NCBI RefSeq assembly: GCF_963921235.1
Contig: NC_086097.1
Span: 95,172,001 to 95,236,000, forward strand
Source: Mobula hypostoma
Lineage: Eukaryota
Length of the DNA: 64,000 bases
Direction: 5' to 3'
Part shown: one piece after another, positions 1-51,749 of the stretch
Numbering within the stretch: position 1 is the first letter of the stretch
Layout: every line of letters begins with the position of its first letter
Translations under genes and position numbers: made by a program
Notes under the pieces: generated by a model
Database searches by the model: none
What the model was told of the DNA's origin: nothing
Seen by the model: only the letters and a program-made list of their open reading frames with translations

Positions 1-262
1 TTTGGACCTCCCCATCCCCCTCTCACATCTCTTACTAACTTCTTCCTTCAGTTAGTCCTGACGAAGGGTCTCAGCCTGAAACATCGACTGTACCTCTTCC
101 TAGAGATGCTGCCTGACCTGCTGCGTTCACCAGCAACTTTGATGTGTGTGGCCTGAAACGTCGACTGTACCTCTTCCTAGAGATGCTGCCTGACCTGCTG
201 CGTTCACCAGCAACTTTGATGTGTGTTGCTTGAATTTCCAGCATCTGCAGAATTCCTGTTGT
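1..262 (+). mobile_element. Penelope-like (Neptune-type, family A) pLTR 3' end, cut by the window edge, with an internal ~77-bp direct duplication (74-149 / 151-226)
   Basis: Near-identical to the reverse complement of the terminal repeat at 16081-16260 that follows the GIY-YIG ORF. Ends in ...GCAGAATTCCTGTTGTT. Confidence 0.85.
54..89 (+). ncRNA. Minimal type I hammerhead ribozyme motif, variant stem III (GAAACATC)
   Basis: AGTC-CTGACGA-AGGGTCTCAGCCT-GAAA-CATC-GACT: stem I AGTC/GACT, both core boxes present, stem II AGG/CCT. Confidence 0.7.
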
Positions 263-670
263 TAGCACTGATAAAGAACAGGTTAAGTTCATTGGCCCTG
301 TCCACACTGCCTTCAGCTCCTCTGTTGCTAGTTTGCCGAAACCCAGTGATGGTCCTCATCCCACTCCAGACCTCTCTCATGTTGTTCTGCTGGAGTTTCC
401 ACTCAAGCTTCCTCCTGTACCTGTCTTTAGCCTCCCTGATCCTGGCTTTCAGGTCCCTCTGTATTGCCCTCAGCTCCTCCCTTTTTCCATCTCTAAACGC
501 CCACTTTTTAGCGTTCAGGATGTCCTTAATGTCCTTTGTCACCCATGGCTTGTTACCTGAATAACAAAGGACAGTTCTTGTCAGAACATTGCAGTCCACA
601 CAGAAGTTAATGTAATCAGTGATGCATTCTGTGAGCCCATCAATATCCTCTCCATGTGGCTCACAGAGGC
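263..670 (-). mobile_element. Rex1/Babar LINE internal fragment (region between endonuclease and RT)
   Basis: ORF 204-683 contains ITDYINFC..NKPWVT..KKWAFR..REAKDRYRRKLE..NNMREVWSGMRTITGF, typical of Rex1/Babar ORF2. Confidence 0.8.
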
Positions 671-1830: not shown

Positions 1831-2446
1831 CTGCCCTCACCCCTGCTTATTAGAGTACATCAAAACCCTGTCTGGTCTAGCACCTGATGCCTCTCTTTCT
1901 GCTTGTGTAGCACATAACTCCTGTCTGCTCTAGCACTGTACCAATTCCTCCTACCTGTTCTAGCACCACACAGTTCTACTGCCTGTTCTAGCAAATCCTG
2001 CCTCCACCCCCGATTATTCTAGCACAACAATCCTTTCTGCTCTAGCTCCTCACAGCCCTCCTTCTGTCCGCAATTGTATCACATACCAGTCTCCATGCGT
2101 GTACTTTTAAAAATTCATTTAGGGACGTGGGCTTCACAGGATGAACCAACATTTCATTGCCCTTGAGAAGGTGGTGCTGTGTTTCCTTCATGATTTGCTG
2201 CAGTCCTTGAGGTCTGCATATACCCACAATGTTGTTAGGGAGAGTTCCAGGATTTCGACCCAGTGAAAATTTCCAAATCAGTGATATATTTCCAAATCAA
2301 TTGTAAGTGGCTTGCGAGGGCAACTTCCAGATGGAGTTATCTCATACTTATGCTATCCTTCTCCTTCATGCTGGTAGATGTTACGTGCTTGAAATTTGTT
2401 GGTAGGTTGTTGTGATGTGTCCAAGAGATGGTGCAAATTGCTGCAT

Positions 2447-2644
2447 GCAACACACATCAAAGTTGCTGGTGAACGCAGCAGGCCAGGCAGCATCTCTAGG
2501 AAGAGGTACAGTCGACATTTCAGGCCAAGACCCTGAAACGACGTCTGTACCTCTTCCTAGAGATGCTGCCTGGCCTGCTGCGTTCACCAGCAACTTTGAT
2601 GTGTGTTGCTTGAATTTCCAGCATCTGCAGAATTCCTGTTGTTT
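2447..2644. mobile_element. ORF-less fold-back (palindromic) pLTR element, PLE family A
   Basis: Inverted arms ~2447-2511 / 2547-2610 made of pLTR sequence. Flanked by GCAAATTGCTGCAT (2433-2446) and GCAAATCGCTACAT (2645-2658). Confidence 0.85.
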
Positions 2645-2942
2645 GCAAATCGCTACATCTTTGCATTGGTGGTGGAATGGTGGAATGGGTCAATGGTTGT
2701 GAATGGGGTGCTTATTGAGCAGGCTGCTGTGACCTGCATGGTGTCAAAATTTCTGAGTGTTGTTGAAGCTGCACTCATCCAGGCAAGTGAGAATATTCCA
2801 TCACACTCCTTCCTTAAATCTTGTGGATGGTGAATGTGCTTTGGGGAGTTAGGAGGTGAGTTTCCCAGCCTCTGAACTGTTCTTTTAGCCACATTGTGTA
2901 TAAGACAACTCCAGTTCAGTTTCTGGTCAATGGTAATCCCAA

Positions 2943-8318: not shown

Positions 8319-8542
8319 AAGCAATAAACAAGATGCTGAAGGTTCTCAGTGGGTCAGGCAGCCTCTAGTAAAAGGATATGGACAGTTGACCTTTCTTGGG
8401 TCAAAATCCTTCATCAATACTGATGAAGGGTCTCAACATGAGAGACTGGTTATCCATTTTCCTTTACAGATACTGCCTGAACTGCTGAGTTCCTTCAGCA
8501 TCTTGCTTGTTGTTCCAGATTCCAGCATTCTTAATCTTGTGT
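8319..8542. mobile_element. Older degenerate fold-back pLTR element (PLE-derived)
   Basis: Arms AAGATGCTGAAGG..TCAGGCAG / CTGCCTGA..CCTTCAGCATCTT. Centre CCTTCATCA-ATAC-TGATGAAGG (8408-8429) is two opposed hammerhead cores. Confidence 0.7.
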
Positions 8543-8550
8543 GCCTACAG

Positions 8551-14800: not shown

Positions 14801-16178
14801 TTTGACTCCTGATTTTCCATTGGAGGATAAGCAATCAGTTGAACTCTTGTCATGGCCTCACAACATTCAAAGTGCTTTACAGTCAATGGAGTTTTAGAAC
14901 GAAGATCCATCCACCATGCTCTCCGGATAGCAATCCTTGTTTCAGTTATCAGGCTGCTGTCTGACTTCTCAACCAATCACCCCTTTTAGATTTGTTTCCT
15001 AGTACGGTCTCAAATTCTTACTATCACTTTAGCATTTCCTTTGCACCACCTCAGTTTGCACTACTATACTTTGCACTATTGCTATTTATGTGCTTGTCAC
15101 TGTAGTTATTGTTGTATCATTTGACCTGCTTTATGGGCAATGATGGTAACCTATGATAAGGGATGAGGCAAGAATCAATGTTAGAGGACTATGGTCCTCC
15201 ACTAGACAGAAGGCAAGGAAACAAGTCCATTGGCCCAGCAATTCCTCCTCAGGCTTGTCACGTCTGCATCACTACTTTTTGATAGGAACCTAAAGCAGAA
15301 CTTAGATGCTTATATTATGTTAATAGAGGGATAAATATTAGCCAGTATATCATGAGAAAACACTGCTTTCATCACCACAGATAAATCTCTCCAATGCCAG
15401 AGATATTGTTCATGATGTTTCTGCAGTTTCCAAATACTTTGTTATTGTACCACTACACCTTTAGTCCTGATGATATGCAACACTTTAAATGTCTGTTGTT
15501 AATGCAAGGAATTTAATGTAGGTTCTGCTTTGCAGAAAAGAAAGCTGTCCCACAAAAAAATCACAAATGAATTAATGATTTGTGTTGTTCTGTTTTCTTG
15601 GTTCTGTTTATGCAATGCCTGGCCTTGTTTTTGTTCCAACTCTACAACATGTCAAGTCTCCCTCCAGAAAGCCAGGCCTATCAGTGTGAAAGTCTAGCAA
15701 TTTCTCAACATTAAAATTCACATCTTTGTTTACAAATCCATCCATGATTTTGCCCCACCATCACTCTGTCTGTCGCTTTCATATAGGTCAGCATGACATA
15801 TCTAAATCCCTTCAGTTCTGGCCTCTTGCATATCCCCAATTTTCACTGTTCTCCCATTAGTGGCTGTATCTTCTAGTGCCTTCAGCCACTCCACCTAATT
15901 AAATATTTCTTTAAATAAGTCTTTTGCAACTCATTTGACCAAGCTTTTCTTTCCCACAAAGCATCCCCAATATCTTTTCAAGTGTTAGGTTTTGTTTCAT
16001 GGCATTCCTGTGAAACATCTCGGGTGCATGAAAGGCATTGTTGTACCCCCTCACACCTCCACTGAAATCCCTCATACTTCAAACAACAGGAATTCTGCAG
16101 ATGCTGGAAATTCAAGCAACACACATCAAAGTTGCTGGTGAACGCAGCAGGCCAGGCAGCATCTCTAGGAAGAGGTAC

Positions 16179-16214
16179 AGTCGACGTTTCAGGCCGAGAC
16201 CCTTCATCAGGACT
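16179..16214 (-). ncRNA. Minimal type I hammerhead ribozyme motif, intact consensus
   Basis: Minus strand: AGTC-CTGATGA-AGGGTCTCGGCCT-GAAAC-GTC-GACT. GUC cleavage triplet and a palindromic ACGU stem III. Confidence 0.85.
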
Positions 16215-16513
16215 AACTGAAGGAAGAGCTAGTAAAAGATTTGAAAGTGGGAGGGGGAGGGGGAGAACCAAAATGATAGGAGAAGACAGGAGGGGGAGGG
16301 AGGGAGCCAAGAGCTGGACAGGTGATTGGCAAAAGGGATATGAGAGGATCATGGGACAGGAGGCCCAGGGAGAAGGAAAAGGGGGAGGGGGGAGAAACCC
16401 AGAGGATGGGCAAGGGGTATAGTCAGAGGGACAGAGGAAGAAAAAGGAGAGTGAGAGAAAGAATGTGTGTATAAAAATAAATAACGGATGGGGTACAAGG
16501 GGGAGGTGGGGCA

Positions 16514-18654
16514 TTAGCGGAAGTTAGAGAAGTCGATGTTCATGCCATCAGGTTGGAGGCTACCCAGATGGAATATAAGGTGTTGTTCCTCCAACCTGAG
16601 TGTGGCTTCATCTTTACAGTAGAGGAGGCCGTGGATAGACATGTCAGAATGGGAATGGGATGTGTAATTAAAATGTGTGGCCACTGGGAGATCCTGCTTT
16701 CTCTGGCGGACAGAGCGTAGGTGTTCAGCAAAGCGGTCTCCCAGTCTGTGTCGGGTCTCGCCAATATATAGAAGGCCACATCGGGAGCACCGGACGCAGT
16801 ATATCACCCCACCCGACTCACAGGTGAAGTGTCGCCTCACCTGGAAGGACTGTCTGGGGCCCTGAATGGTGGTAAGGGAGGAAGTGTAAGGGCATGTGTA
16901 GTACTTGTTCCACTTACAAGGATAAGTGCCAGGAGGGAGATAAGTGCCAGGAGGGAGATCAGTGGGGAGGGATGGGGGGGACGAATGGACAAGGGAGTCG
17001 TGTAGGGAGCGATCCCTGCGGAAAGCGGGGGAGGGGGCGGAGGGAAAGGTGTGCTCAGTGATGGGATCCCGTTGAAGGTGGTGGAAGTTACGGAGAATAA
17101 TATGTTGGACCCGGAGGCTGGTGGGGTGGTAGGTGAGGACCAGGGGAACCCTATTCCTAGTGGGGTGGCGGGAGGATGGAGTGAGAGCAGATGTGTGTGA
17201 AATGGGGGAAGATGCGTTTGAGAGCAGAGTTAATAGTGGAGGAAGGGAAGCCCCTTTCTTTAAAAAAGGAGGACATCTCCCTCGTCCTAGAATGAAAAAC
17301 CTCATCCTGAGAGCAGATGCGGCAGAGACGGAGGAATTGCAAGAAGAGGATGGCATTTTTGCAAGAGACAGGGTGAGAAGAGGAATAGTTCAGATAGCTG
17401 TGAGAGTCAGTAGGCTTATAGTAGACATCAGTGGATAAGCTGTCTCCAGAGACAGAGACAGAAAGATCTAGAAAGGGGAGGGAGGTGTCAGAAATGGACC
17501 ACGTAAACTTGAGGCAGGGTGAAAGTTGGAGGCAAAGTTAATAAAGTCAACGAGTTCTGCATGCGTGCAGAAAGCAGCAGCAATGCAGTCGTCGATGTAG
17601 CGAAGGAAAAGTGGGGTACAGATACCAGAATAGGCACGGAACATAGATTGTTCCACAAAGCCAACAAAAAGGCAGGCATAGCTAGGACCCATACGGGTGC
17701 CCATAGCTACACCTTTAGTTTGGAGGAAGTGGGAGGAGCCAAAGGAGAAATTATTAAGAGTAAGGACTAATTCTGCTAGACGGAGCAGAGTGGTGGTAGA
17801 GGGGAACTGATTAGGTCTGGAATCCAAAAAGAAGCGGAGAGCTTTGAGACCTTCCTGATGGGGGATGGAAGTATATAGGGACTGGACATCCATGGTGAAA
17901 ATAAAGTGGTGGGGGCCAGGGAACTTAAAATCATCGAAAAGTTTAAGAGCGTGAGAAGTGTCACGAACATAGGTAGGAAGGGATTGAACAAGGGGGGATA
18001 AAACCGTGTCGAGGTATGCAGAAACGAGTTCCGTGGGGCAGGAGCAAGCTGAGACAATAGGTCTGCCAGGACAGGCAGATTTGTGGATCTTGGGTAGGAG
18101 GTAGAAACGGGAAGTGCGAGGTGTAGGAACTATAAGGTTGGTAGCAGTGGATGGGAGATCCCCTGAGCAGATAAAGTCGGTGATGGTGTGGGAGACAATG
18201 GCCTGGTGCTCCTTAGTGGGGTCACGATTGAGGGGTAAATAAGAGGAGGTATCCGCGATTTGTCGCTGTGCCTCGGCAAGGTAGAGGTCAGTACGCCAGA
18301 CTACAACAGCAGCCCCCTTATCGGCGGGTTTAATAATAAGGTTAGGATTAGTGCGGAGGGAGTGCAGAGCAGAGCGTTCCGAAGGAGTGAGGTTGGAATG
18401 GGAACAAGGTGTGAAGTCGAGACGGTTGATGTCCCGTCGGCAGTTAGCGATAAAGAGATCCAGAGCAGGCAGAAGACCAGAGCGGGTGTCCATGAAGAAG
18501 AGAAGGGTTGAAGACGCGAGAAGGGGTCATCGGTGGGGGTGGAAGAGTCCTTGCCGAAGAAGTAGGCTCGGAGATGGAGACGGCGGAAGAAGAGTTCCGC
18601 ATCATGGTGAACACGGAACTTGCTGAGGGGTGGGCGAAGGGGGACAAAGGACAA
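16514..18654 (-). pseudogene. PLE reverse transcriptase-GIY-YIG endonuclease ORF, split by frameshifts
   Basis: ORF pieces 18301-18654, 17468-18493 (RT) and 16514-17356 (GIY-YIG), ending GMNIDFSNFR*. An 18-bp in-frame duplication gives PPGTYLPPGTYP. Confidence 0.9.
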
Positions 18655-19590
18655 AGCTTATCCCTTACTGAGGACAGAGCGCTCTGCCTCAGACAGTTGA
18701 AGGTCGGAGGGGATGGTAACGACCCGGCACGGATGAGAGCTGGGATCCGAGGGGGGGCAGGCAGGCTGGGGCTGTCAATGGAGAGTGGAGGGTTGGGGTG
18801 AGAGGAAGATGGAGCCTCTGAGGACCGAGGAGCTGATGATGGGATCTGAAGGAGATGGGATTGCAGAGTATTGGTGGGGGAAGGGGAGACGGGAGTCACA
18901 ATAGCAGCACATAAAGACCCGGCCTGGAGTACAAGGCTGGAGTCGCAGTTGGTGGTTGCGCAATCGCTTTGAAGGTGTCCATGGTCGTTGCTGGAGTCCA
19001 GGTTTTGAATATGCCCTGAGGCGTTGGAGCCGGCGAGATCAATGGCAAGGGCCGCAATCTGAAGCCCTCATACTTCCTCCTGTTTGTACTCCTCTATTGT
19101 CTCATTTGAAGCATTGACCATGGTTAGCTTCAGGCATCAGGACCCAAAAATACGTCTCACTAATCTAGATTCTTCTGCAGAAATAGGTGTGATGGCATGA
19201 TGCTAATTCATTATGAAAATTTTTATAAGATTTCATATTCTATCTTATTTATAGGGCCCATTTCTAGTCCAAGGGTAAATTGGTGACTGCAATAAATAGA
19301 TCTGAAGTTAACAAAAATCAAATAAACAAGTATGCTTATAAATGCATATATACTGATATGCACAAGGCAAAGATTAGCATGTATAAAGAGCACAGGCATG
19401 CATGAATGCTTTGTCAGGGCCTAATATAGTCGGGCCCACAAGTGTTACTACAGACAGGCAAATAAGATCAAAAACAACACACACAAAATGTTGGAGGAAT
19501 TTAGCAGGTCAGGCAGCATCTATGGAAATTAAGTGCGCGCGCACACACACACACACACACACTCGCATATGACGCCATATGGCTCCTATA

Positions 19591-20085
19591 CAGTAGTGTG
19601 CAAAAATCTTAGGCACTTAAAATGTAGTTAGTGTGCCTAAGAATTTTGCACAGTACTATAGTAATTTTATGTAATGCACTGTATTGCTGCCACAAAAAAA
19701 AGACAAATTTCATGACACATGTTAGTGATGATAAACTTGATTTTGATATGGGTCTGTCGTGTGGACTGAGAGTGGGGAGGGGGCAGGGAGAGGGGAATCA
19801 TGGTTGGGAAAAGGGGAGGGAGTGGGAAGCACCAGACAGACAGTCTGTAATGATCAATAAACCAATTGTTTGGAAACAAATGACCTTGTCTGATGTCTCA
19901 GAGCTGGGCGTGTCTGCACCCATGCCATGCCCGCCCCTCCTCCCCACAACCTTCACTGCCAGCTGTCCCACACCTCTCCCGCAGCGCTCCACCCTCGCCA
20001 TTCCCAAAATGCTTTGCCCTCACCAGCTTTGCAAGCTCGCTCTCCACCCAACTTTGACAAATATAGTTACTGTACTAAAGTCTTA
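19591..20085. mobile_element. Composite Tc1/mariner-like MITE, copy 1 (right end degenerate)
   Basis: TA + CAGTAGTGTGCAAAAATCTTAGGCAC..GTGCCTAAGAATTTTGCACAGTACTA hairpin (19591-19658). Internal ~400 bp is homologous to the reverse complement of 51832-52228. Confidence 0.75.
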
Positions 20086-24131: not shown

Positions 24132-25142
24132 AGTCTTTCCTTTCGCCCTTCCTGTAGGTACACTGATCGGCTGGACTCTGGACAGATGTGCTGAATGGTG
24201 AAAAAAACCATGAGGATTTACCAGTCCCTCCTTTCATTAGCTGATTTTAACAATTTTGCATATACATACTGTACAGAGAACAGGTTGAGCCCAACGGCAA
24301 GCTGACTAGCTACTAGGTTCCAAATGCAAAGAGGACAGTATCCATCAAGGAGAAGCCCTGTAATAACCTCAGTACACACATGCATCATTTATTGGGTAAA
24401 AGCTGCAAAACCACAAACTGGCAATTTCCCATTCACATATCATCAGGTGTTCATTGACCAATTTTGATTCACAATTATGCAATTGCAAAATACACTCTTC
24501 TCGTCCTTGTTTGCAGATTCCCCCAAAGCAACAATTCATCTCTACATCAGTAATCTCCTCCAAGGTATCTTCTCTTCTTCAGAACTGGCCTCTTGAATAT
24601 CCCCTGTTCTGCCTACCAGCCATTGCTGACCATTTAGTGGTCTTGGCCCTAAGCTCTGTAATTCTCTCCCTAAACCTCTACACATTTTTTACCTCATCCT
24701 CAGGGTTTTTCAAAACTAACCTCTTTGCCCAGTCTTTTTTTTTTCCTAAACACAAAATACTCTGCAGATGCTGGGGTCAAAGCAATATTCACAACACGCT
24801 GGAGGAACTCAGCAGGTCGGGCAGCATCCGTGGAAACGATGAGTCAATGTTTTGGGCCAGAACCCTTCGCCAGGACTGAAGAGGGAAGGGGCAGAGGCCC
24901 TATAAAGAAGGTGGGGGGAGAGTGGGAAGGAGAAGGCTGGTAGGTTCCAGGCGAAAAACCAGTAAGGGGAAAGATAAAGGGGTGACGGAGGGGAAGTAGG
25001 GAGGTGATAGGCGGGAAAGGTAAAGAAGGAATAGGGGAAAACACAATGGGTAGTAGAAGGAGGCAGAACCATGAGGGAGGTAACAGGCAGCTGGAGGAGG
25101 AGGCAAAGTGAAACTGGGATACGGGAAGGGAGGGGAACAGAA

Positions 25143-28100
25143 TTACCGGAAGTTGGAGAATTCTATGTTCATACCAAGGGGCTGGAGACTACCTAGACGG
25201 TATATGAGGTGTTGCTCCTCCAACCTGAGTTTAGCCTCATCATGGCAGTAAAGGAGGCCATGTATGGACATATCTGAATGGGAGTGGGAAGCAGAGTTGA
25301 AGCGGGTGGCTACTGGGAGATCCTGTCTGCTGTGGCGGACGGAGCGGAGGTGCTCAACGAAGCGGTCCCCCATTCTGCGTCGGGTTTCACCGATGTAGAG
25401 GACGCCGCACCGGATGCAATGGATGACCCCAACAGACTCACAAGTGAAGTGTTGCCTCACCTGGAAGGACTGTTTGGGGCCCTGAATGGCGGCAAGAGAG
25501 GAGGTGTAGGGACAGGTGTAGCACTTACGCTTACAGGGATAAGTGAGATCCATGGGGAGGGACGTGTGGATCAGGGAGTCACGGAGGGACCGATCCCTGC
25601 GGAAAGCGGAGAGAGGCGGAAAAGGAAAGATGTGCTTAGTGGTGGGGTCCTGTTGAAGGTGGCGGAAGTTGCGGAGGATAATGTGCTGGATCTGGAGGCT
25701 GGTGGGGTGGTAGGTGAGGACAAGGGGAACTCTGTCCCTGTTGTGGTGGCGGGAGGATGGGGTGAGGACCGAAGTGCGGGAAATGGAGGAGATGCGGGTG
25801 AGGACATCATTGATGACGGGCAGAAGGAAAACCACGAACCTTAAAGAAAGAGGACATTTGAGATGTCCTGGAACGGAAAACTCTCATCCTGGGAGCAGAT
25901 GCGGCAGAGACGGAGGAACTGGGAATAGGGAATGGCATTTTTGCATGTGGCGGGGTGGGAAGAGGTATAGTCGAGGTAGTTATGAGAGTCAGTGGGCTTA
26001 TAGAAGATGTCAGTGGACAGTCTGTCTCCAGAGATGGAGACCGAAAGATCGAGAAAGGGGAGAGAAGTGTCCAAGATGGACCAAGTGAATTTGAGGGCTG
26101 GGTGGAAGTTTGAAGTAAAGTCGATGAAATTGACGAGCTCAGCATGGGTGCAGGAAGCAGCACCAATGTAGTCGTCAATGTACCAAGGGAAAAGTTGGGG
26201 AGTAGTACCAGAATAGGTTTGGAGCACAGACTGTTCCAAATAACCAACAAAGAGGCAGGCATTGCTGGGGCCCATGTGAGTGCCCATAGCTACACCTTTG
26301 GTCTGAAGAAAGTGGGAACAGCCAAAACAGAAGTTATTAAGTGTGAGTATCAGTTCTTCCAACCGGAGGAGGGTAGTGGTGGTGGGAAACTGGTGAGGTC
26401 TATTATCCAGAAAGTAGTGGAGGGCCTTGAGGCCTTCTTGATGGGGAATGGAGGTGTATAGGGATTGGACATCCATAGTGAAAATGAAGCACTCGGGACC
26501 AGGGAACTGGAAGTTATTGAAGAGGTGGAGGGCATGGATGTATCCCGGATATGGGTGGGGAGGGACTGAACTATGGGTGACAAAATGGAGTCCAGGTAGG
26601 CAGATAGAAGTTCGGTTGGACAGGAGCAGGCGGAAACTATGGGTCTACTGGGACAGTCAGGCTTGTGAATCTTGGGGAGGAGGTAAAACCAAGCGGTACG
26701 GGGTGTGGGAATTATGAGTTTAGCGGCTGAGGATGGAATGTCCCCGGAGTTGATAAGGGTGGTGATGGTATGGGAGGGAATGGTTTGAATTTTTTTGGTG
26801 GGGTCCTGTTCCAGGGGTAAGTAAGAGGAGGTATCAGAGAGCTGCCGTTTGGCCTCAGTGAGGTAGAGGTCCGTCCACCAGACTACTACGGCACCACCTT
26901 TGTCTGAGGGTTTGATGGTGAGGTTGGGATTAATGCAGAGAGAGTGGAGGGCAGTGCGTTCAGAGGGAGTGAGGTTGGAACAGGAGAGAGGAGTGCTGAA
27001 GTTGAGACAGTTGATGTCTCGGCAACAGTTGGAGATAAAAAGATCGAGTGCAGGTAGAAGGCCTGGGCGGGGTGTCCAGGAGGAAGAGGAGGGTTGAAGA
27101 CAGGAGAAGGGGTCATCAGTAGGGGGAGGGGAATCTTTGCCAAAAAAGTAGGCTCAGAGACATAGGCGACGGAAGAAGAGTTCAGCGTCATGGCGGGCAC
27201 AGAACTCACTGAGGTGTGGACGGAGGGGGACAAAAGTGAGGCCCTTGCTAAGGATAGAACATTCTGCTTCAGAGAGGGGAAGGTCAGATGGGATGGTGAA
27301 GACATGGCAAGGGTTGGGGCTGGGGTCTGGGGTCAGAGGAAGGTGAAGAGTGGGAGGTCTCAGGAGGGAGAGGGGGGTTGGGATATTCAGGGAGAGTGGG
27401 GTTAGGGGAGGATGAGGGATCAGAGGAATGGAGGGACGATGAGGAGTAGAAGGAAGGTTGGGAGTCGCGGGGAGGAGAAGAGGGTAGTGGGGGAATAAGC
27501 AGCAGTAAGAGCGGTCCTGGTCTGGTGAGGGTCGGGACCTCAGTCCGAGCTGGATCTGGAGCTGAGGGTGGCGAAGCTTGTAACCTGCAGGACCCCAGAA
27601 CTGAGGTCGGAGTCGAAGGTGAGTGAGTCCATGGCCCGCTGGCGGCTGGTGCCCATGTCTGGGAGGCCGTGGTACCAATCGGGGTCAGAATATGAGGCGG
27701 ATGGGTCTTCGGCCTGCTGAAGGCCTGAGAAGTCGAGGTCCGAGGGGTCGGGGTCCGGGCCTGGAGCCGGTCGTTGTCATGGGCTTGTGGTCCTTCTTGG
27801 ATGCAAGGAAGGAGAAGAAATGGCGGTTGGAGGCGTGAGTCCGGCGGAGAATGAAGTGTAGGAGAGGTCCATGGCAGACGGTGGAGAGTGAGGCCCGGAG
27901 TGGTGGTAGAGAGAGGAACAGGGCCCGTAGGTATCTCCGCATGGCAGTGAGCGTGGCACGGAGAATCCGGCGGGAGCAGCGGTCAATGAAACGGAGGTAT
28001 CTGGGATCCACGTCGGGCCCGAACTGGGAGACCTGGAACCAGAGCTGGAATCCCTGCGGTAACAGATGGTGGTGGAGACACGTTCCCAGGAAGGAGACGT

Positions 28101-28272
28101 GGCTGTGGGAGCGGGTCTGGGTCAGGATCTGGTTGAAGAGTCGGAGAGAGGCGGAGATCACAGAGGGGGAGCAGTGAGAGAGGGTCTCACTGAATTCCCG
28201 TTGAAGGGAAGATTTAAACTTCTTCAGGGTAGGCATACCTCGAAGAAACTTCGCAGCGGAGTAGCGAATCAA
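25143..28272 (-). pseudogene. Full-length but multiply frameshifted PLE ORF (N-terminal domain, Pro-rich linker, RT, GIY-YIG)
   Basis: ORF fragments 27685-28272, 27154-27678, 25841-26476 (MDVQSLYTSIP..YIDD) and 25143-25835 (LYIGETRR..RFVEH..GMNIEFSNFR*). Confidence 0.9.
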
Positions 28273-28364
28273 AACATAAAATACTCTGCAGATGCTGGGG
28301 TCAAAGCAACACGCACAACACGCTGCAGGAACTCAGCAGGTCGGGCAGCATCTGTGGAAAAGAT

Positions 28365-28402
28365 CAGTCAACGTTTCAGGCCGGAACCCTTCGTCAGGAC
28401 TG
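28365..28402 (-). ncRNA. Minimal type I hammerhead ribozyme motif (GUU triplet)
   Basis: Minus strand: CAGTC-CTGACGA-AGGGTTCCGGCCT-GAAAC-GTT-GACTG. 5-bp stem I and an AACGUU palindrome. Confidence 0.8.
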
Positions 28403-30069
28403 AAGAGGGAAGGGGCAGAGGCCCTATAAAGAAGGTGGGGGGAGGGTGGGAAGGAGAAGGCTGGTAGGTTCCAGGTGAAAAACCAGTAAGGGGAAAGATA
28501 AAGGGGTGTGGGAGGGGAAGCAGGGTGGTGATAGGCAGGAAAGGTGAAGAAGGAATAGGGGAAAACACAATGGGTAGTAGAAGGAGGCAGAACCATGAGG
28601 GAGATGACAGGCAGCTGGGGGAGGGGGGCAGAGTGAAATAGGGATAGGGGAAGGGAGGGGGAGGGAATTACCGGAAGTTGGAGAATTCTATGTTCATACC
28701 AAGGGGCTGGAGACTACCTAGACAGTATATGAGGTGTTGCTCCTCCAACTTGAGTTTAACCTCATCATGGCAGTAGAGGAGGCCATATATGGATATATCC
28801 GAATGGGAATGGGAAGCAGAGTTGAAGTGGGTGGCTACCGGGAGATCCTGTCTGTTGTGGCGGACGGAGTGGAGGTGCTCGACGAAGTGGTCCCCCAATC
28901 TGCGTCGGGTTTCACCGATGTAGAGGAGGCCACACCAGGAGCACCGGATGCAATAGATGACCCCAACAGACTCACAATTGAAGTGTTGCTTCATCTGGAA
29001 GGACTGTTTGGGGCCCTGAATGGTAGTCACTCTGCCCCCTCCCCTAGCTGCCTATCACCCCCCTCATGGTTCCACCTCCTTCTACTACCCATTGTGTTTT
29101 CCCCTATTCCTTCTACACCTTTCCTGCCTATCACCTCCCTGCTTCCCCTCCCCCACCCCTTTATCTTTCCCCTTACTGGTTTTTCACCTGGAACCTACCA
29201 GCCTTCTCCTTCCCACCCTCTCCCCACCTTCTTCATAGGGCCTCTGCCCCTTCCCCCTACAGTCCTGATAAAGGGTTCCGGCCCAAAAAGTCGACCGATC
29301 TTTTCCACGGATGCTGCTCGACCTGCTGAGTTCCTCCAGTGTGTTGTGAGTGTTGCTTTTTTTCCCCTGTTGTCTTCATGTCTTCTCCTAAGGTCCCAAG
29401 TCATAAAGATAGGCCCTTTGATCTCCCATGAGGACAATCAAACTCTCATTTACAATTATCCAATCTTCCTCTCATCAATGGTCTCCAGATCCTCCCACCT
29501 CTATTTCACTTTACAGTAGCAAATTACCTATCAAACCGCTTGCTTTTGGGGTAACAGAACACCAAGGGGAGTCCTATACAGGCACAGAGAGAAATGTAGC
29601 TGACTGGATAAAGCACCATTGTGCCAATGACGGGACAACATCGATAAGCCTGCAATGGCTTTCTCTTTGGTTCTTGCTACAGCCTTTGGAACAAATCAGT
29701 CAGTGAACTGTGACCTACATTAAACTCCCCTAATTATTGAGAAGTTGAAATATTGTCCAGGAGTGATTCTTCTCCCACAGGGGCAGGGGTTCGAAACAAA
29801 GGTAGCCACAATTACTAAGGAACCTGTTGCAATCAACTTATCCCTTCTGTTAAATCAACAGACCCTAAACAGGACTCATGACTACAGGAGAACAGCCAGT
29901 ACATATTGTTAAGCTACTGATGCAAAGAAACCATCACAACAATAATCATTTGCAGAAAACTTCATCTTCAGTCCTTCTGGTGTCTTGCATTTTGTCCACC
30001 TTTAAATGTAGCAAAACATCTTAAAATATATTGTAAGAGCATTATCAAACAAAATATGACACGAGGCAA

Positions 30070-30512: not shown

Positions 30513-32160
30513 AGAATCAGAATCAGGTTTATTATCACCGGTATGTGTCGTGAAATTTGTTAACTTAGCAGCAGCAGTTCAATACAACACATAATATAGA
30601 AGAGAAAAAAAACAAAATAAAATAATAATAATAATTAAATCAATTACAGTATATGTATATCGAATAGATTAAGACTTGTGTAAAAACAGAAATAATATAT
30701 ATTTTTAAAAAATGAGGTAGCATCCAAGGATTCAATGTCCATTTAGGAATCAGATGGCAGAGGGGAAGAAGCTGTTCCTGAATCACTGAGTGTGTGCCTT
30801 CAGGCCTCTGTACCTCCTACCTGATGGTAACAGTGAGAAAAGAACATGCCCTGGGTGCTGGAGGTCCTTAATAATAGAAGCTGGCTTTCTGAGACACCAC
30901 TCCTTGAAGGTGTCCTGGGTACTTTGTAGGCTAGTGCCCAAGATGGAGCTGACTAAATTCACAATCCTCTGCAGCGTCTTTCGGTCCTGTGCAGTAGCAC
31001 CACCCGCCCCCCCCACATACCGGACAGTGCTGCAGACTGTCAGAATGCTCTCCATGGTACATCTATAGAAGTTTTTGAGTGTATTTGTTGACATACCAAA
31101 TCTCTTCAAACTCCTAATGAAGTATAGCCGCTGTCTTGCCTTCTTTATAACTGCATCGATATGTTGGGACCAGGTTAGATCCTCAGAGATCTTGACACCC
31201 AGGAACTTGAAACTGCTCACTCTCTCCACTTCTGATCCCTCTATGAGGATTGGTATGTGTTCCTTCGTCTTAACCTTTCAGAAGTCCACAATCAGCTGTT
31301 CCGTATTACTGACGTTGAGTGCCAGGTTGTTGCTGCGGCACCACTCCACTAGTTGGCATATCTCACTCCTGTACATCCTCTCGTCATCATCTGAGATTCT
31401 ACCAACAATGGTTGCATCATCAGCAAATTTATAGATGGCATTTGAGCTAAACCTAGCCACACAGTCGTGGGTACAGAGGAGAGTAGGGCAGAGGGCTAAG
31501 CACACACGCCTGCAGTGCACCAGTGTTGATCATCAGTGAGGAGGAGATGTTATCACCAATCCGCACAGATTGTGGTCTTCCAGTTAGGAAATCAAGGATC
31601 CAATTGCAGGAGGTACAGAGGCCCAAGTTCTGCAACTTCTCAATCAGGATTGTGAGAATGATGGTGTTAAATGCTGAGCTGTAGTTGATGAACAGCATCC
31701 TGACACAGGTGTTTGAGTTGTCCAGGTGGTCTAAAGCCGTGTGAAGAGCCACTGAGATTGCATCTGCCATTGACCTATTATAGCAAAAGGCAAATTACAA
31801 TGGGTCCAGGTCCCTGCTGAGGCAGGAGTTCAGTCTAGTTATGATCAACCTCTCAAAGCATTTCATCCCTGTAGACATGAGTGCTACCGGGTGATAATTA
31901 GTCATTAAGGCAGCTCACATTATTCTTCTTAGGCACTGATATAATTGTTGCCTTTTTGATGCAAGTGGGAACTTCCGCCCATAGCAGTGAGAAGTTGAAA
32001 ACGTCCTTGAATATTCCCACCAGTCGGTTGCCACAAGTTTTCGGAACTTTACCAGGTACTCCATTGGGACACTCAGCCTTGCGAGGGTTCACTCTCCTTA
32101 AAGACAGTCTAACACCGGCCTCTGAGACAGAGCTCACAGTGTCACCAGGTGCAGCAGGGG
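30513..32160 (-). mobile_element. Rex1/Babar LINE, 5'-truncated (RT to 3' UTR)
   Basis: VNPRKA..P(N)GVPG, VPTC.KKATII.VPKK, IYKFADDATIVGRI, FKFLGV..KKARQRLYF..LLPSGRRYR. Tail (TTCTGA)n. Confidence 0.92.
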
Positions 32161-35040: not shown

Positions 35041-35509
35041 CCCCAAGTTACTCTGAATGGGATTTCTCCTGTCAGATCCTCAGTTGCTCTGTACCCCACT
35101 GGGAAGGTGGGTGTACTGCAAAGTGAACCCAGAATCACTCCATACCTTTGTTGGATGAATGAAGATCAGCAGGAGGTGTGGTTACTTGCCTGATATTCGA
35201 TTTATGACAAAGACTGCTGGAGGAAGTGCTTCTAAACCACTGTTAAATGTAGCAATGAGTGTTTGGGTTAGCAACATAAACATGTTTGATGTAAAACTTG
35301 TAATGGAACAAAGAACAACTGAATCTGTTGATAGCAATAGGTCTGAGCCAGGATCTAAAAGAAGAGTCTGCAAATAGCAGAAGCCACTTTGATCAGCAGA
35401 CACAAGAGGCCATCCTGTGGCTATGATACTGTCACCACAACTTTATTGATTGGGCTTGGATAATCTTCTGACAAGACATCTTTTGAGGAAGGACGTGAAT
35501 TTCTATCAT

Positions 35510-35757
35510 TATTTCCCAGCTCTTTACTTCATCCCTCCCCCTTCATGTTTCACCTATCACTTTGTGTTTCTCTCTTCCCTCCCCCCATCTTTTAAATCTA
35601 CTCCTCAGTTTTTCTTCTCCAGTCCTGCTGAAGGGTCTCAGCCCGAAATGTCGACTGTAATCCTTTCCATGGACACTACCTGGCCTGCTGAGTTCCTGCA
35701 GCATTTTGTGTGTATTGCTTGGATTTCCAGCATTGCAGATTTTCTCTTGTTTGTGAT
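35510..35757 (+). mobile_element. Solo PLE pLTR fragment (third subfamily) with a mutated hammerhead at 35621-35657
   Basis: AGTCCTGCTGAAGGGTCTCAGCCCGAAATGTCGACT. Perfect 14-bp direct repeat TGAATTTCTATCAT at 35496-35509 and 35758-35771. Confidence 0.8.
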
Positions 35758-35785
35758 TGAATTTCTATCATGCCTTTCACAGTGA

Positions 35786-36484: not shown

Positions 36485-37268
36485 CAGAATCAGAATCAGA
36501 TTTAATATCACCGGCATATGCCATGAAATTTGTTAACTTTACAGCAGCAGTAAGATGAAATACATGATAAATAAATATAGAGAAAAAACTGAGTTACATT
36601 TAGGGCATATATGTCTATTAGGTTAAGTTAAAATAAGTACTGCAAAATAATAGAAAAAAAAAGTAGTGAGGTAGTGTCCTTGGGTTCAATGTCCATTTAG
36701 GAATCAGATGGCAGAGGGGAAGAAGCTGTTCCTGAATCACTGAGTGTGTGCCTTCAGGCTTCTGTACCTCCTTCCTGTTTGTGGCAATGAGAAAAGGGCA
36801 TGTCCTGGGTGGCTGGGGTTCTTAATGAAGGACGCCGCCTTTCTGAGGATACTATCGAGGCTAGTACCCATAAAGGAGCTGACTAATTTTACAAGTTTCT
36901 GCAACTTATTTCGATCTTGTGCAGTAGCTCCACTATACCAGATGGTGATGCAGCCAGTCATAATGCTCTCCACAGTACATTTGTAGAAGTTTTCAAGTGT
37001 TTTAGCTGACAAATCAAATCTCCTCAAACTCCTAATGAAATATAGCTGCTGTCTTGCCTTCTTTACAGCTGCATCAATATGTTGCACCCAGGTTAGGTCC
37101 TCAGAGAAAATTTATTATTTTAACAATAAGCTACATAACAGATCAACTAAGTGACACCCAGGAACTTGAAAGTGCTCACTCTCTCCAATTCTGATCCTTT
37201 GTGAGGATTGCTTCGTGTTCCCTCTTCTTATCCTTCCTGAAGTCCACAATCAGCTCTTTGGTCTTGCA
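36485..37268 (-). mobile_element. Rex1/Babar LINE 3' end
   Basis: ORF 36737-37087 contains QHIDAAVKKARQQLYFIRSLRRF..GRRYRSLKAHTQ. Tail (TCTGAT)n. Homologous to 30513-31300. Confidence 0.9.
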
Positions 37269-37410: not shown

Positions 37411-37570
37411 AATACAACTGTTGGGGGAACTCAAAGGGCTAGCAGTGGCTGTGGAGGAAAAGGGATAGGAAATATTTGGGGTTAAGACCAAGTATCAGGA
37501 CTGATGCAAGACCTCGGCCCAGAAAGTCAACAATTCCTGTTCCCTCACCTGCTGATCCCAGCATTGTGTC
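37411..37570. mobile_element. Very degenerate fold-back pLTR element
   Basis: Centre GTATCAG-GA-CTGATGC, followed by AAGACCTCGGCCCAGAAAGTCAAC (decayed hammerhead). Arms are pLTR-like. Confidence 0.45.
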
Positions 37571-37731
37571 TCCATATTTTGTGTGGAGTCTCCCACAGGA
37601 AGAATTATATACCCAGACCCTGAGAAACAGTGAGCCAAATAACCATCTCATTATCTCAAACTCCTTATGCACGCCTCCTCCCAAGGTTCACAACAGGAGT
37701 TGCATTGAGAGTGGAAATATAGAGGGATATC

Positions 37732-38544
37732 CTCGGACTTCCAGCCAGGTACAAGTATCAATTGTAATTGATATTTCAATGACAATCTCTGCCATCTTCA
37801 TCAGGGATGATACCTGGGCATGTCTCATCCAGTGGTACTTATACCCCTGTCATCCATCCCTCCTGATTGATTAGTCCTCATCCAATCAGGTTTCCACTGT
37901 CCCATCTTGCTTACAATCAAATTACAGTCTTACCTAGAGGAAGACCTTAGTCTTTGTTAAAATTCTTTTTCTCTAGTTTTATTTCTATGGCTTCCTTCAA
38001 CAGGCGGTCCCAAAAGCCATTGGTGTGGCACAGTAGTTACGTGTCGTCGAAGTCAATCGCACGGTGGAAACTCACATCAAGGAGCATAGGAGGTGTATTC
38101 GTTTGGGTTACCTGAAGAAATCAGCAGTAGCAGAACGTTGTATTTGCAATAGCCATAGGATTAACTTCGACGGCACAAAACTACAGTGCCGCGCCAATGG
38201 CTTTTGGGACCGCCTGGTGAAGGAAGCCGTAAAAATAAAACTAGGGAAAAAGCATTTTAACAAAGATTAAAGTCTTGCTCTGAGAAAGAACTGGAATTTG
38301 ATTGTAAACAAAGTGGGACAGCAGAAACCTGATTGGATAAGGACTAACCAATCAGGAGGGACAGGTGATGGGGGTATAAATACTACCAGACTGGACATGT
38401 CCAGGTATCATCCCTGATGAAGATAGCAGAGCTTGTCATTGAAATGTCATTGAAATGTCAGTTAAAATCGATACCTGTACCCGACTGGAAGCACAAGAAG
38501 AGTTTACTTGTCATATGAGCTGGGAAAGCACTAGACCCTTTTTC
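37732..38544 (+). mobile_element. Poseidon/Penelope-type PLE 3' end with a long inverted duplication
   Basis: ORF 38064-38270 contains IKEHRRCIRLG..KSAVAE..HRINFD..RLVKEAVKI (GIY-YIG C-terminal part). 37732-38058 is an inverted copy of ~38158-38500. Flanks ATAGAGGGATATC (37719-37731) and ATAGAGAAATATC (38545-38557). Confidence 0.85.
38329..38382 (+). promoter_or_regulatory. Putative pLTR Pol II promoter: two opposed CCAAT boxes plus a TATA box
   Basis: CCTGATTGG (ATTGG 38332-38336), CCAATCAGG (38348-), GGGGTATAAATA (TATAAA 38375-38380). Confidence 0.5.
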
Positions 38545-46745: not shown

Positions 46746-47631
46746 ATTTATATTCCCTCTACACTATTTGGTCAGGGTAGATACAACCACTCAATATGAA
46801 ATAGAGAATCTGTATATTCTGTCATCGGTTCCTCAATCATTAAAAGTTAGAAAAACAAAGCTAAACGGTTGTTCCATTTCTCCCATGAGCACCCCAGGGT
46901 CCTTGATTAAAATATCAAACTTAGACAATTTCACCCTTGTAGATCTCCAGTCATCAGGAACCAATCTGAGAATATCCAATTTTATTTTGTACCAATTTGT
47001 GGTACACCAACAACTTGCATTTATATGGCATCTTTAATGTAATAGGATAGCTCAGGCACTCTACAAGATTATTCATAAAAAATGAGAAGACATTAGAAAG
47101 TGGAAGCACCTTGCTCGGAGGTTTTATCACACATTACAGAACTTCTACTAAGTGCTAATTACAGGGAATTAAGAGAAATGAAAATTCTCTTTGCATGCAA
47201 TCAAACAAATATGTTAGGCACAGACTCACTGGAACCACATTGCGCAGCTGAATAGTGATCACTCAAAGCCTGAAATTATCAGCGTCAAAACAAGAGGAAG
47301 GGTGGAAGCAGTGTGGGTTTAAAAATGGGGCGCATATGTGACCACAACACATGCAGCCAACAGCAAGAAATCCAGCCAGTGTGCTCAGCTGTTTCCACAT
47401 CACGGCTCAATGTGCTTCTCAAAATATAGCAAACAAGATGTCTTTGCCCAGGGTTTGCTTTCTGGTGAGGGGTTTACTCCTAATCTTTAAACATTATATA
47501 CTCCATACAGCAATAACAAAAAGTATTTAACATCATTAACATAGCAAGGTACCCCCAGCACTGAACAGGAAAGTTACCAAAAAAACTTGATGCCACAGCA
47601 CAGGAAATGAAATGACAGATGAGCTTTATAC

Positions 47632-48357
47632 CTCCTCTCTCACCACTATTCAGGGCCCCAAACAGTCCTTCCAGGTGAGGCAACACTTCACTTGTGAGTC
47701 TGTTGGGGTCATCTATTGCATCCGGTGCTCCCAGTGCAGCCTCCTCTACATCGGTGAAACCTGACGCAGATTGGGGGACCACTTCGTCGAGCACCTCCAC
47801 TCCGTCCGCCACAACAGACAGGATCTCCCGGTTCCCACCCACTGCAACTCTGCTTCACATTCCCATTTGGATATGTCCATACACGGCCTCCTCTACTGCC
47901 ACGATGAGGCCAAACTCAGGTTGGAAGAGCAACATCTCATATACCGTCTGGGTAGTCTCCAGCCCCTGGGCATGAACATTGAATTCTCCAACTTCCAGTA
48001 ATTCCCTCCCCCTCCCTTCCCCCATCCCAGTTTCACTCTGCCCCCTCCCCCAGCTGCCTATCACCTCCCTCATGGTTCCACCTCCTTCTACTACTCATTG
48101 TGTTTTCCCCACTCCTTCTTCATCTTTCCTGCCTATCACCTCCCTGCTTCCCCTCCCCCACCCCTTTATCTTTCCCCTTACTGGTTTTTCACCTGGAACC
48201 TACCAGCCTTCTCCTTCCCACCCTCCCCCCACCTTCTTTATAGGGCCCCTGTCCCCTCCCTCTTCAGTCCTGACGAAGGGTTCTGGCCCGAAACATTGAC
48301 TGATCGTTTCCGCAGATGCTGCCCGACCTGCTGAGTTCCTCCAGCGTGTTGTGAGTG
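47632..48357 (+). mobile_element. PLE family B 3' fragment (GIY-YIG end plus pLTR)
   Basis: Near-identical to the reverse complement of 28310-29025. Perfect 11-bp TSD GAGCTTTATAC at 47621-47631 and 48358-48368. Confidence 0.92.
48265..48302 (+). ncRNA. Minimal type I hammerhead ribozyme motif, variant GAAACATT
   Basis: CAGTC-CTGACGA-AGGGTTCTGGCCC-GAAA-CATT-GACTG. Confidence 0.65.
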
Positions 48358-49879
48358 GAGCTTTATACAAAGAAGGTTTTAAGGATCATCTTAAAAGGAA
48401 GAGAAATATAAAGAGCAGACATTGAGAAAGAAGGTGGTCTGCAAATGTAATCAAGGAACACCAAGTGGCCAGAACTAGATAGACAGCAGAATCTCAGAGG
48501 ATCGCAGGGCAGTGGAGATTACAAAGTGGGAGGGATAAAGTGAGTAGGATCTGAAAATTAGGATCAAGGTTTTGAATCTGAAGCATTGCTTAACCTTAAC
48601 TCAAACTAGGTCAGCCAAGGGTGTATAAAACTGGCTCAAATTAGATATGGATAGCAGAATTTTCAAAAGCACTGCTATTTGTCCTCTGTTTAATGCAAAC
48701 TCAGCAAAGTCCATACTGAATCTCTCTGCCACTGTGCATCATCAAGGACAAAGATGTACAGGTGGGGTTGGGGGTGACGGGAAAGAGAAACAGGCTGAGG
48801 TGGAAGTGAAAAAGGCTGGGAAAGTGGGACAGAGAGACAGGAGGGGTCAGAAAGAGAAGACAACAGTTGGTGGAAGAGATGCAGGCAGGTAGGGGTGGTG
48901 AGGGATGAATGGGAGCAGACAGACATGGGAGGGGAAGGCAGGTAGGGCTGGTGGGGAAAGGCAGAAAAGTGAAGGGGGAGTTGATGGGGGAAAACAGGGA
49001 GTGAGGAAGTCCAGTAAAAGGATTTAGTAGATGGATCCACCGTGTAACGGGAGCTGGAGCTAGGTTTAGAGTTGCAGCTTCCATTGCCTGGGTTTATTGG
49101 AAGCTGCTCCAGCCACCACACAGCTTGAGGCCTTGTCTGCTGAAGGCATAGCCTAACTTTGCACAAAAACCTCCGCCACACTTTAGATTATTTGCCTACA
49201 AGTAGCACATTGGGTGTAAAATGTTTTTCATATCCCACTGTCACAAAAGCTGCGATTAAAATGCCAGTTCCTTTTTTCTTTATTTTTAATCAAAAGACAC
49301 AAACAACTTGTGAGGGTTTGGGGAGTCTGTGTCTATTTTTGCTGGTGCGTATGACTTTAAAAAGCTGATGAATTATCTGACAAAGCTTGTTTGGAAATGT
49401 ATGTGAGTAACTGCAGGCTTTGGTCTGGTTACATCAGATAAGGTGGGTTTCAGACACTGCTTGTTTCCATTTATTTAATCCACTGTCAGAAAGAGATTTA
49501 CTGGTGTTCAACCCCACATGGTTACAGGGCAAGAGCTCTGCTGGGCCACCTGCTTGCTCCGTTCACTTCAGAAATGACACATTTCAGCTTCTTCCTGTCT
49601 GGTGCTGTTGACCTGTTCATGCCTCTACGCTATCTCTGCTGCATCTACAGTCAACACTGAGTAAGAACAGACCATTTACAGTACTCCTATCAGATACACT
49701 ACAGTTCACGTGTATGCCTCATTGCCAGCCACTCAGTCTCCATAGTACACAAGGAGTATAAAAGGAACAATTTTGTCCTGTATCAGCCACATGTAACTTA
49801 GAGTAGCATCTGCATACCTACAGAACACAGAATAAAATACAGTACAGCCTTTCCTGTCTGATGCTGTACAGGTCATATA

Positions 49880-50672: not shown

Positions 50673-51749
50673 CAGTGGATTCCAGTTAACTGGGACACAT
50701 CGGGACCAGTATATGTTGGCCTAATTAAGCAGCTGTCCCAATTAGCCATAGTTTCATGGAAATATTTAGAAAGATATAAAAGGAGTCAGCAAACAACAGG
50801 AATTCTGCAGATGCTGGAAATTCAAGCAACACACATCAAAGTTCCTGGTGAACGCAGCAGGCCAGGCAGCATCTCTAGGAAGAGGTACAGTCGATGTTCC
50901 AGGCTGAGACCCTTCGTGACGAAGATCCTGACGAAGGGTCTCGGCCTGAAACGTCGACTATACCTCTCCCTAGAGATGCTGCCTGGCCTGCTGCGTTCAC
51001 CAGCAACTTTGATGTGTGTTGCTTAAAAGGAGACAGACTCAGTAATAAATTATGTATTTAAATGAATACAGAACAAACTAGAATACTACAACTAGTACTA
51101 CAGTACTATAAAATTGTCTATTAGTCCCTAATAGTTATTGATGGAGGAATTCATCCAGTATGCGCTGACGTGTTCTTTAGATTGACTGTAAATGAACAAA
51201 ATCAGTGCAGACACCTAGTGTAGATAATGGACTGCCTTCGTACAATACTTTCGGCGATTGCATCCTCCAAATCTTCATTTTCATTGTAACATTCATGATG
51301 ATTGTCGATATCTTCAAATTCTTCACAGTTTCTAACTTATTGAAGTAGTGAAATCGTTTCATTTCCTCTCCCGGCTGTTTCTGGCATTTCCAAGCCTGAA
51401 TGCTTGAAACCGCAGTGAGCAAAATGGTTCTGAGTAGCCTTACTACTTATTTCTCCTCAACGATCAGTATCAAAAATCACCACATTTCAATACAAACACA
51501 TGCAACTGATGTTATTTACAAACAGTTTGCTCTAAGTGTGGGGTAGTGCCTAACAGCCACACAAGTGTACGTGACTGACACTAGTTAGAAACTGATAGGC
51601 TACAATCTCCTGCCACAATTAAGTGACATAGTGCCCCAAATAAATGAAGAGAATTCCAGCAATTTCTCAATTAGTTTATGCTTTTTAAGTGTTGTCCCAA
51701 ATAGGTGGTTGCTCTGATTAACCAAGGCCCAATTAACAGGAATCCACTG
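50673..51749 (-). mobile_element. Tigger/pogo-like non-autonomous DNA transposon
   Basis: TA-CAGTGGATTCCAGTTAACTGGG ... CCCAATTAACAGGAATCCACTG-TA. Minus-strand remnants QNHFAHCGFKH and acidic EDIDNHHECYNENEDLEDAI resemble a Tigger transposase C-terminus. Confidence 0.85.
50791..51023. mobile_element. ORF-less fold-back pLTR element (PLE family A) inserted in the Tigger-like element
   Basis: Arms ~50824-50917 / 50931-51023. Hammerhead core CTGACGAAGGGTCTCGGCCTGAAACGTCGACT at ~50928-50959. Flanks TAAAAGGAGTCAG (50777-) and TAAAAGGAGACAG (51024-). Confidence 0.88.

Follow-up and report, generated by a model that had tools for sequence, protein, structure and literature searches.

In the published descriptions, the standard unit of a Penelope-like element (PLE) has an inverted 5'-truncated copy, a 30–40-bp tail at one end and a TSD (PMC8557442). 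Inverted pLTRs with tail and TSD, and with palindromes at the pLTR 5' ends and at the inverted junctions, have been described in rotifers (PMC3846280), and the origin of the inverted PLE ends is called undefined (PMC8557442). In the pLTRs of metazoan PLEs, minimal hammerheads combine a long helix II and a palindromic minimal helix III with CTGAnGA and GAAAC boxes, and many copies are dispersed outside full elements (Cervera and de la Pena 2014, PMC4209133). The protein of the anole PLE PAc (Poseidon of Anolis) cleaves and extends both strands; its RT begins at two sites, one on each side of the tail, and uses a mostly uncleaved RNA template (Frangieh et al. 2024, PMC11167929). Animal non-LTR retrozymes, which are short, ORF-less, hammerhead-bearing and derived from PLE pLTRs, are direct tandem arrays thought to use circular RNA (bioRxiv 10.64898/2026.07.22.740005).

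Four palindromic inserts of 160–235 bases each (E1, E2, E3 and E4) were analyzed within a window of 64 kb, the window being the whole stretch of DNA under analysis (Table 1). In the features of EN+ PLE units, pLTR homology was found, the arms were head to head in 4/4, the one-sided tail was clear in E1 and E4 and decayed in E2, and a TSD was found in E1 and E4. The head-to-head truncated pLTRs, the one-sided tail and the junction palindromes are also features of units such as Pen2a_Av and Pen3a_Av of Adineta vaga, whose TSDs are similar in length to those of E1 and E4 (PMC3846280; PMC8557442, Fig. 2), and the structure itself is the ordinary PLE layout, already described (PMC8557442, PMC3846280). 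The published examples consulted, however, have an ORF or cargo between the pLTRs, whereas the arms of E1–E4 are cut back to ~90–130 nt; their junction lies in the 5' half of the hammerhead, a position not stated for the Pen2a_Av and Pen3a_Av units in the accessible text. In the literature searched, which held few subscription papers, no mapping of inversion junctions onto the hammerhead was found. We consider it probable, at roughly 70%, that E1–E4 are the shortest, independently formed products of the normal two-ended insertion of the parent PLE, joined at −5 to +17 of the hammerhead core.

The pLTR of a long PLE at 16078 contains a predicted ribozyme with both core boxes and helices I and II (box at 16210, predicted cut after 16183, which is +27), and these motifs agree with the minimal hammerheads of PMC4209133. 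Those of E1–E4 differ from them in being truncated (E1 and one E4 arm), mutated (E2 and E3) or such as would be buried in a long helix; both boxes survive only in the right arm of E4, where helix I is shortened. Palindromic stubs are not discussed in the searched part of that text (PMC4209133). With their ribozymes truncated, mutated or helix-buried, the products are likely inert fossils. As a separate observation, two adjacent transversions in the tailed arm of E1 (2540–2546) destroy the cleavage triplet at the predicted cut site and can be read as a 3-nt slip.

Identity with retrozymes was considered and rejected: E1–E4 are single inverted pairs with broken motifs, and with TSDs in E1 and E4, whereas retrozymes are direct tandem monomers with working hammerheads. 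MITEs are short and ORF-less, with inverted repeats and a TSD. The four inserts differ from them in that the arms are unequal retroelement 3' ends and the TSDs are long and of variable length; nor is a uniform, amplified family seen in the window.

Table 1. Coordinates of the palindromic inserts and of related PLE features in the window (junction positions counted from where the CTGAnGA box begins)
Feature	Coordinates	Strand	Remarks
Direct tandem, young subfamily	39..263	+	downstream tailed copy (at 150) starts at +15, same spot as the E1 tailed arm
E1 left TSD copy	2432..2446		13/15 match to 2644–2658; score equalled by 1/400 random pairs
E1 tail-less arm	2447..2534	-	reaches +7, into hammerhead helix II; 2 CpG-type changes vs pLTR at 16078
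E1 tailed arm	2532..2644	+	starts at +17; 112/114 identical to pLTR at 16078; 2532–2534 (3 nt) common to both arms
E1 right TSD copy	2644..2658		pairs with 2432–2446
E2 tail-less arm, older subfamily	8319..8422	-	reaches −2 to −5
E2 arm with decayed tail	8420..8545	+	starts at CTGATGA box, 0 to +3; no significant TSD
Long PLE, young subfamily of E1/E4, frameshifted	16078..19100	-	RT, CX2-5CxxC-like linker, GIY-YIG, pyrimidine-rich UTR, hammerhead core 16210–16183, tail
Long PLE, partial tandem copy, 4.6 kb	24738..29365	-	inverted tail-less arm 29027–29359; 9-nt flanking repeats; junction −238 / −616
E3 left arm, strongly decayed	37411..37503	-	reaches −2 to −5; profile E 8.6e-6
E3 right arm, strongly decayed, with deletions	37501..37572	+	starts at box; profile E 7.2e-4; no significant TSD
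Head-to-head pair, second PLE family, ~750 bp	37738..38491		hammerhead-like motif per arm (boxes 37804 -, 38414 +); junction about −255 / −355
E4 left TSD copy	50777..50789		12/13 match to 51024–51036; 0/400 random pairs as good
E4 tailed arm	50790..50917	-	reaches +3, inside CTGACGA box; 122/126 identical to pLTR at 16078
E4 junction insert	50918..50925	+	8 nt: 7 nt repeat +2..+8, plus one extra base; read from sequence
E4 tail-less arm	50926..51023	+	starts at −2; complete hammerhead core, most of helix I 5' strand absent
E4 right TSD copy	51024..51036		pairs with 50777–50789

Composition of the four inserts

The arms were searched with a profile made from 11 pLTR pieces of the window, all lying outside E1–E4. 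Each insert was found to consist of two opposed pLTR 3' ends placed head to head (4/4), and both arms were matched in every case (E values of 1e-22 and 8e-25 for E1, 4e-16 and 7e-16 for E2, 8.6e-6 and 7.2e-4 for E3, and 4e-32 and 3e-27 for E4). Self-comparison of the window also recovered the inverted arms of E1, E2 and E4; the arms of E3 were not found by BLAST or single-sequence searches. Folding gave z-scores of −21.2 (E1), −10.8 (E2) and −22.1 (E4), all beating 200/200 shuffles, whereas the z-score of E3 was only −1.5, with 15/200 shuffles equally good. E3 is thus an inverted pair so decayed that it no longer forms a clear hairpin. The description of all four as hairpins made only of opposed pLTR 3' ends, given in the initial annotation, therefore held for the arms but not for the present fold of E3, and the arms proved unequal. 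In E1, E2 and E4, one arm carries the tail and the other ends at the tail boundary; the tail measures 34 nt in the young subfamily (clear in E1 and E4), is decayed in E2 and is not discernible in E3. Moreover, the tail-less arm extends 5–10 nt further toward 5' than the tailed arm in E1, E2 and E4. The arms of E2 are 71/93 identical to each other.

When the flanks were compared with 400 random pairs, TSDs were found to be significant at E1 (13/15) and E4 (12/13), while no TSD was found at E2 or E3 by the same comparison. A search of the window for empty sites, in the form of further copies of the sequences flanking E1, E2 or E4, found none. The arms may have been inserted independently side by side, or joined by a later rearrangement, and such an origin would be eased by the density of pLTRs (20 arms at 13 loci in 64 kb), by the ability of a PLE endonuclease to cut its own pLTR in vitro (PMC11167929) and by the lack of recognisable TSDs at E2 and E3. 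It is nevertheless very improbable, given that a single TSD encloses both arms in E1 and in E4 and that the arms of the young pairs are of the same subfamily, meet at most 10 nt apart on the pLTR map and are always head to head. In a separate observation, the target flank beside the tail-less arm of E1 (2426–2446) resembled the missing tail, with ~13/16 matches after a 4-nt gap, a likeness that could be fortuitous or could point to a preferred target.

No hammerhead match was returned by Rfam, and its two microRNA matches on E1, far below the gathering scores, reflect the hairpin shape. Repeat annotators may mislabel stubs of this kind as MITEs or microRNA precursors. If the young copies were transcribed, RNA helices of ~80–100 bp would be expected; inverted Penelope copies yield siRNAs in Drosophila (PMC3681739).

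Position of the inversion junctions

Junction positions were counted from the start of the CTGAnGA box of the hammerhead, on which scale the predicted cut falls after +27. All eight arms of E1–E4 ended within −5 to +17, upstream of the cut site, which confirmed for all four inserts the earlier placement of the inversion point inside the hammerhead or just 5' of its box. The microhomologies at the junctions were inverted and 1–4 nt in length. In E1, the tail-less arm (+7) and the tailed arm (+17) have 3 nt in common, in helix II; in E4, 8 nt lie between the tail-less arm (−2) and the tailed arm (+3), and this insert would be explained by a double template switch. E2 and E3 have one junction type (−2 to −5 and 0 to +3), so that the junctions, previously called non-identical, differ between E1 and E4 but not between E2 and E3. 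The E2/E3 junction is the center of an imperfect 16-nt palindrome at the edge of the box, and the same palindrome is already found in un-inverted pLTRs of older subfamilies (28391, 35616, 48261).

In the two longer head-to-head PLE insertions of the window (24738–29365 and 37738–38491), the junctions were ~240–255 nt upstream of the ribozyme and the tailed arm was the longer one, by 100–380 nt. The motif thus contains the junction in four of the six head-to-head insertions of the window, not in all. Under exponential truncation with a mean of 100–1000 nt, a 43-nt zone is expected to take 27–4% of the ends, and four of six inversions in this zone correspond to P values from 0.049 to <0.001, for a zone chosen post hoc and n=6. 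The 5' half of the ribozyme motif is plausible as a junction hotspot, though a modest and unproven one.

Stops capable of fold-back (terminal stem of at least 3 nt, short loop) made up 9–21% of the motif zone versus 4–7% of the upstream UTR in 4/4 reference copies. Downstream of the motif, however, fold-back potential was as high as inside it (7–24%), and the motif RNA was not markedly more stable than the 3' pLTR. Microhomology or structure alone is thus insufficient to explain the spot. The pyrimidine tract that precedes the box on its upstream side has hardly any RNA structure and is poor in fold-back sites. The earlier proposal of a stereotyped minimal insertion, produced by a stop or template switch at the ribozyme, agrees with the ends of all eight arms, the short microhomologies and the four of six inversions in the zone; the folded ribozyme as the cause of the stop is less secure, because the palindrome and the boundary between pyrimidine tract and AG lie at the same spot. 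The ribozyme fold, the natural palindrome and an RNA or splice boundary are the candidates for the cause. The junctions offer a lead on how inverted PLE ends arise: once counted genome-wide, their gathering at the ribozyme 5' half, upstream of the cut site, and a possible longer-arm bias can separate twin priming, snap-back and antisense self-priming.

Contigs from 4 of 24 listed sequencing runs were compared over 15950–17450 of the young element. In one run, 384,670 contigs matched this 1.5 kb, so the young-element family is very abundant. Among the best-supported joints (best 15 of 15 + 2,136), one of the 15 changes strand; it has one side at 16213 and was seen in two organisms with 3 contigs each. 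Among the lettered joints (12 listed of 12 + 504), for which the kind of joint is not given, 3/12 start at 16214. One contig joint at the motif edge, also of a kind not given, had a depth of ~135 versus ~10 on its flank and could represent several copies of one junction; some motif-edge joints had depths of 118–311 versus a flank of ~10 in one run and 60–90 in another, which may reflect recurrence or limited re-mobilisation. Summed depth from the 3' part of the pLTR into the UTR fell 11-fold in one run, guessed to be RNA, and 2.3-, 2.5- and 2.6-fold in the three others, a fall that is no copy number and is not counted as evidence because other subfamilies have the motif but not the UTR. A>G and T>C places together amounted to 154/445 in the run guessed to be RNA versus 143/592, 179/750 and 103/395 in the others; the contigs come from different individuals, so these counts are no readout of editing.

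Candidate routes of formation

By the favored reading, the endonuclease would nick both target strands ~13–15 nt apart, and each 3' end would then prime RT at one of the two tail-bracketing start sites, giving a tailed and a tail-less cDNA. Synthesis would tend to end ~80–100 nt inward of the tail-less end, within the 5' half of an uncleaved hammerhead and just before the long pyrimidine tract. The stopped cDNA end would pair through a 1–4-nt inverted repeat of the motif, either intramolecularly by fold-back or with the other cDNA; fill-in and repair would leave a hairpin between TSDs. Two-site priming of the PAc type accounts for the tailed and tail-less arms, and two cDNAs from two start sites would place both inside one TSD. 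The two start sites, the extension of both strands and the uncleaved template are as in PAc; PAc differs in being a Poseidon element, of another clade than the PLEs of the window, so that its in vitro data come from outside their clade, and neither head-to-head products nor a stop at the ribozyme are reported for it in the accessible text (PMC11167929). The head-to-head layout of a tailed and a tail-less arm recurs in the window at the 4.6-kb and 750-bp scales. Because the tail-less arm of E1, E2 and E4 reaches further 5', it is no plain copy of the tailed cDNA, and its formation requires either an antisense template or another cDNA primed separately. Three routes fit, namely snap-back of the tail-less cDNA followed by annealing of its new sense strand to the tailed cDNA, direct pairing of cDNA ends, and self-priming of an antisense RNA; three cases cannot decide among them.

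At least two subfamilies are represented among E1–E4. E1 and E4, both of the young subfamily, have different junctions, and no derived change is common to E1 and E4, or to the two arms within either; E2 and E3 represent other, older subfamilies. The differing subfamilies, the differing young junctions and the absence of a common derived change favor independent by-products, and the MITE-like non-autonomous class that had been offered as an alternative was not upheld in the window. In such a family, a master hairpin would be transcribed and re-inserted in trans by the PLE protein, a course made thinkable by the shared junction type of E2 and E3, by the finding in a rotifer that pLTR sequences suffice for trans-mobilisation (PMC3846280), by the existence of non-autonomous PLE derivatives (PMC8557442; bioRxiv 10.64898/2026.07.22.740005) and by the few motif-edge contig joints that are deeper than their flank among the joints listed. 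Nevertheless, E1 and E4 disagree in their junctions within one young subfamily, their arms show 96–98% identity to the pLTR of the long PLE at 16078, and a hairpin of −164 to −188 kcal/mol would be expected to bury the tail signals. The likeness of the E2 and E3 junctions can be an independent outcome in older subfamilies, as the natural palindrome would give such a junction each time, and many copies with the same internal junction and diagnostic changes were not found within the window. A family of this kind is unlikely.

An RNA boundary at the 5' edge of the motif, either the 5' terminus of a transcript or a 3' splice site at about −2, may instead set the stop. It would replace only the step at which synthesis ends: internal RT starts at the tail sites would run off to give strong-stop-like cDNAs of ~100 and ~135 nt, followed by head-to-head pairing. 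A pyrimidine tract with YAG at −5 to −3 was found in 8/9 copies that keep the UTR (16211–16240 on the minus strand and equivalents; 31–57), with a branch-point-like heptamer ~25 nt upstream in the young subfamily, these features being read by the splice-site consensus. The tail-less arms of E2, E3 and E4 can be read as ending exactly at −2, and 4/27 joints among those listed have one side at 16213–16214. In D. virilis, the 5' end of helix I is where the intron terminates (PMC4209133), and the majority of transcripts undergo splicing (PMC2377424); the anole PLE RT starts internally near the pLTR–ORF junction (PMC11167929). By analogy with Penelope of D. virilis, the pyrimidine tract and YAG before the box are a possible 3' splice site. 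The ends of E1 at +7 and +17 and the start of the tandem copy at 150 at +15 do not fit such a boundary, and no foreign first-exon sequence was seen at any of the four junctions. Moreover, the AG is also needed for helix I pairing, a possible cause of its conservation, and the loose contig ends at 16214 resemble the purine-rich UTRs of other subfamilies (consensus agreement 0.36–0.49). A boundary of this kind is doubtful as the actual cause; it still has to be taken seriously beside stalling at the folded ribozyme because of the tract and YAG in 8/9 copies, the three tail-less arms at −2 and the intron of D. virilis that ends at the same helix.

A more speculative extension, to which we give somewhat less credence, takes E1–E4 as fossils of a strong-stop-like PLE intermediate, in which RT would start at the two tail sites and run off at a splice acceptor or transcript start fixed at the 5' edge of the ribozyme, and the tail-less cDNA would snap back on the edge palindrome and capture the tailed cDNA. 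If this were true, junction maps of very high-copy genomes such as the present one would read out the second-strand step of PLEs base by base, and the hammerhead region of the pLTR would gain a role at the DNA level without a need for cleavage.

Self-priming of an antisense RNA was proposed by Arkhipova and colleagues (PMC3846280): a transcript ending near the motif would fold back and template sense DNA with the tail included, after which the hairpin would be integrated. Near-symmetric junctions with palindromes are predicted by this route and, by extension, a tail-less arm reaching further 5', as in E1, E2 and E4. In both long inversions, however, the longer arm is the tailed one, which would need a jump; nothing at the spot would end an antisense RNA, the ribozyme acting on the sense strand; and the in vitro system uses RNA across the pLTR–ORF junction and extends both strands (PMC11167929). 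We regard this route as quite unlikely. Ends defined by ribozyme self-cleavage, where RT would run off the cut RNA and fold back, are hardly credible. The predicted cut site is no more than 35 nt away from any of the four junctions, but 0/8 arms end at it and all run 10–33 nt upstream of the cut, so the template was uncleaved; cleavage is also dispensable in vitro (PMC11167929).

Parent elements and the PLE landscape of the window

Two long PLEs were found in the window, both frameshifted, with frames matching RVT_1 at E values of 3e-6 and 1e-5, just under the Pfam cut-offs; the element at 16078..19100 gave the former value and a GIY-YIG match at 3e-4, likewise just under the cut-off. By eye, a CX2-5CxxC linker ahead of GIY-YIG and two cysteines between GIY and YIG were seen intact in the ORF at 25143–25883, and the ORF at 16514–17389 has the same linker and GIY/YIG cysteines with one linker cysteine changed. 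Such a linker with GIY-YIG cysteines belongs to the description of Neptune/Nematis (PMC8557442). The parent thus appears to match a Neptune/Nematis-type PLE by its linker and GIY-YIG cysteines, the label "Neptune-type" being taken from the linker alone. No clear pairing emerged when the long element's three pLTRs were compared with each other and with one further copy (informative sites 3:3:2).

The head-to-head pair of the second PLE family lies 170 nt from E3 and has longer-stemmed hammerhead-like motifs, one arm carrying an 11-nt duplication at the GAAA box. Judged by eye, its junction seems to sit in an endonuclease-like remnant, for which Pfam gave no match. Plain 5'-truncated PLE copies were also present, one with the tail and a perfect 14-nt TSD (35496–35771) and one without the tail and with a perfect 11-nt TSD (47621–48368), so either RT start site is usable alone. 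Two copies of one subfamily, at 47627 and 29023, are truncated at most ~20 nt apart in the endonuclease region.

A 20-nt pLTR motif matched 6 metagenome loci, all by chance and lacking further pLTR similarity, and 0 viral loci. Among 146 frames outside the PLEs (144 of the 217 of 72–149 aa, plus two longer ones), Pfam showed no host gene, only retroelement-type and weak matches. ALKBH8_N was matched at 30783–31277, 36740–37111 and 59659–60000, in frames that we take to be remnant ends of LINE RT and not a host gene, and a ~42-nt tandem repeat lies within a LINE-like remnant at 717–900+. A small family with terminal inverted repeats starting TACAGTA, presumably derivatives of DNA transposons, was seen at 19589–19660 and 51764–52297 and includes 70-nt hairpin forms.
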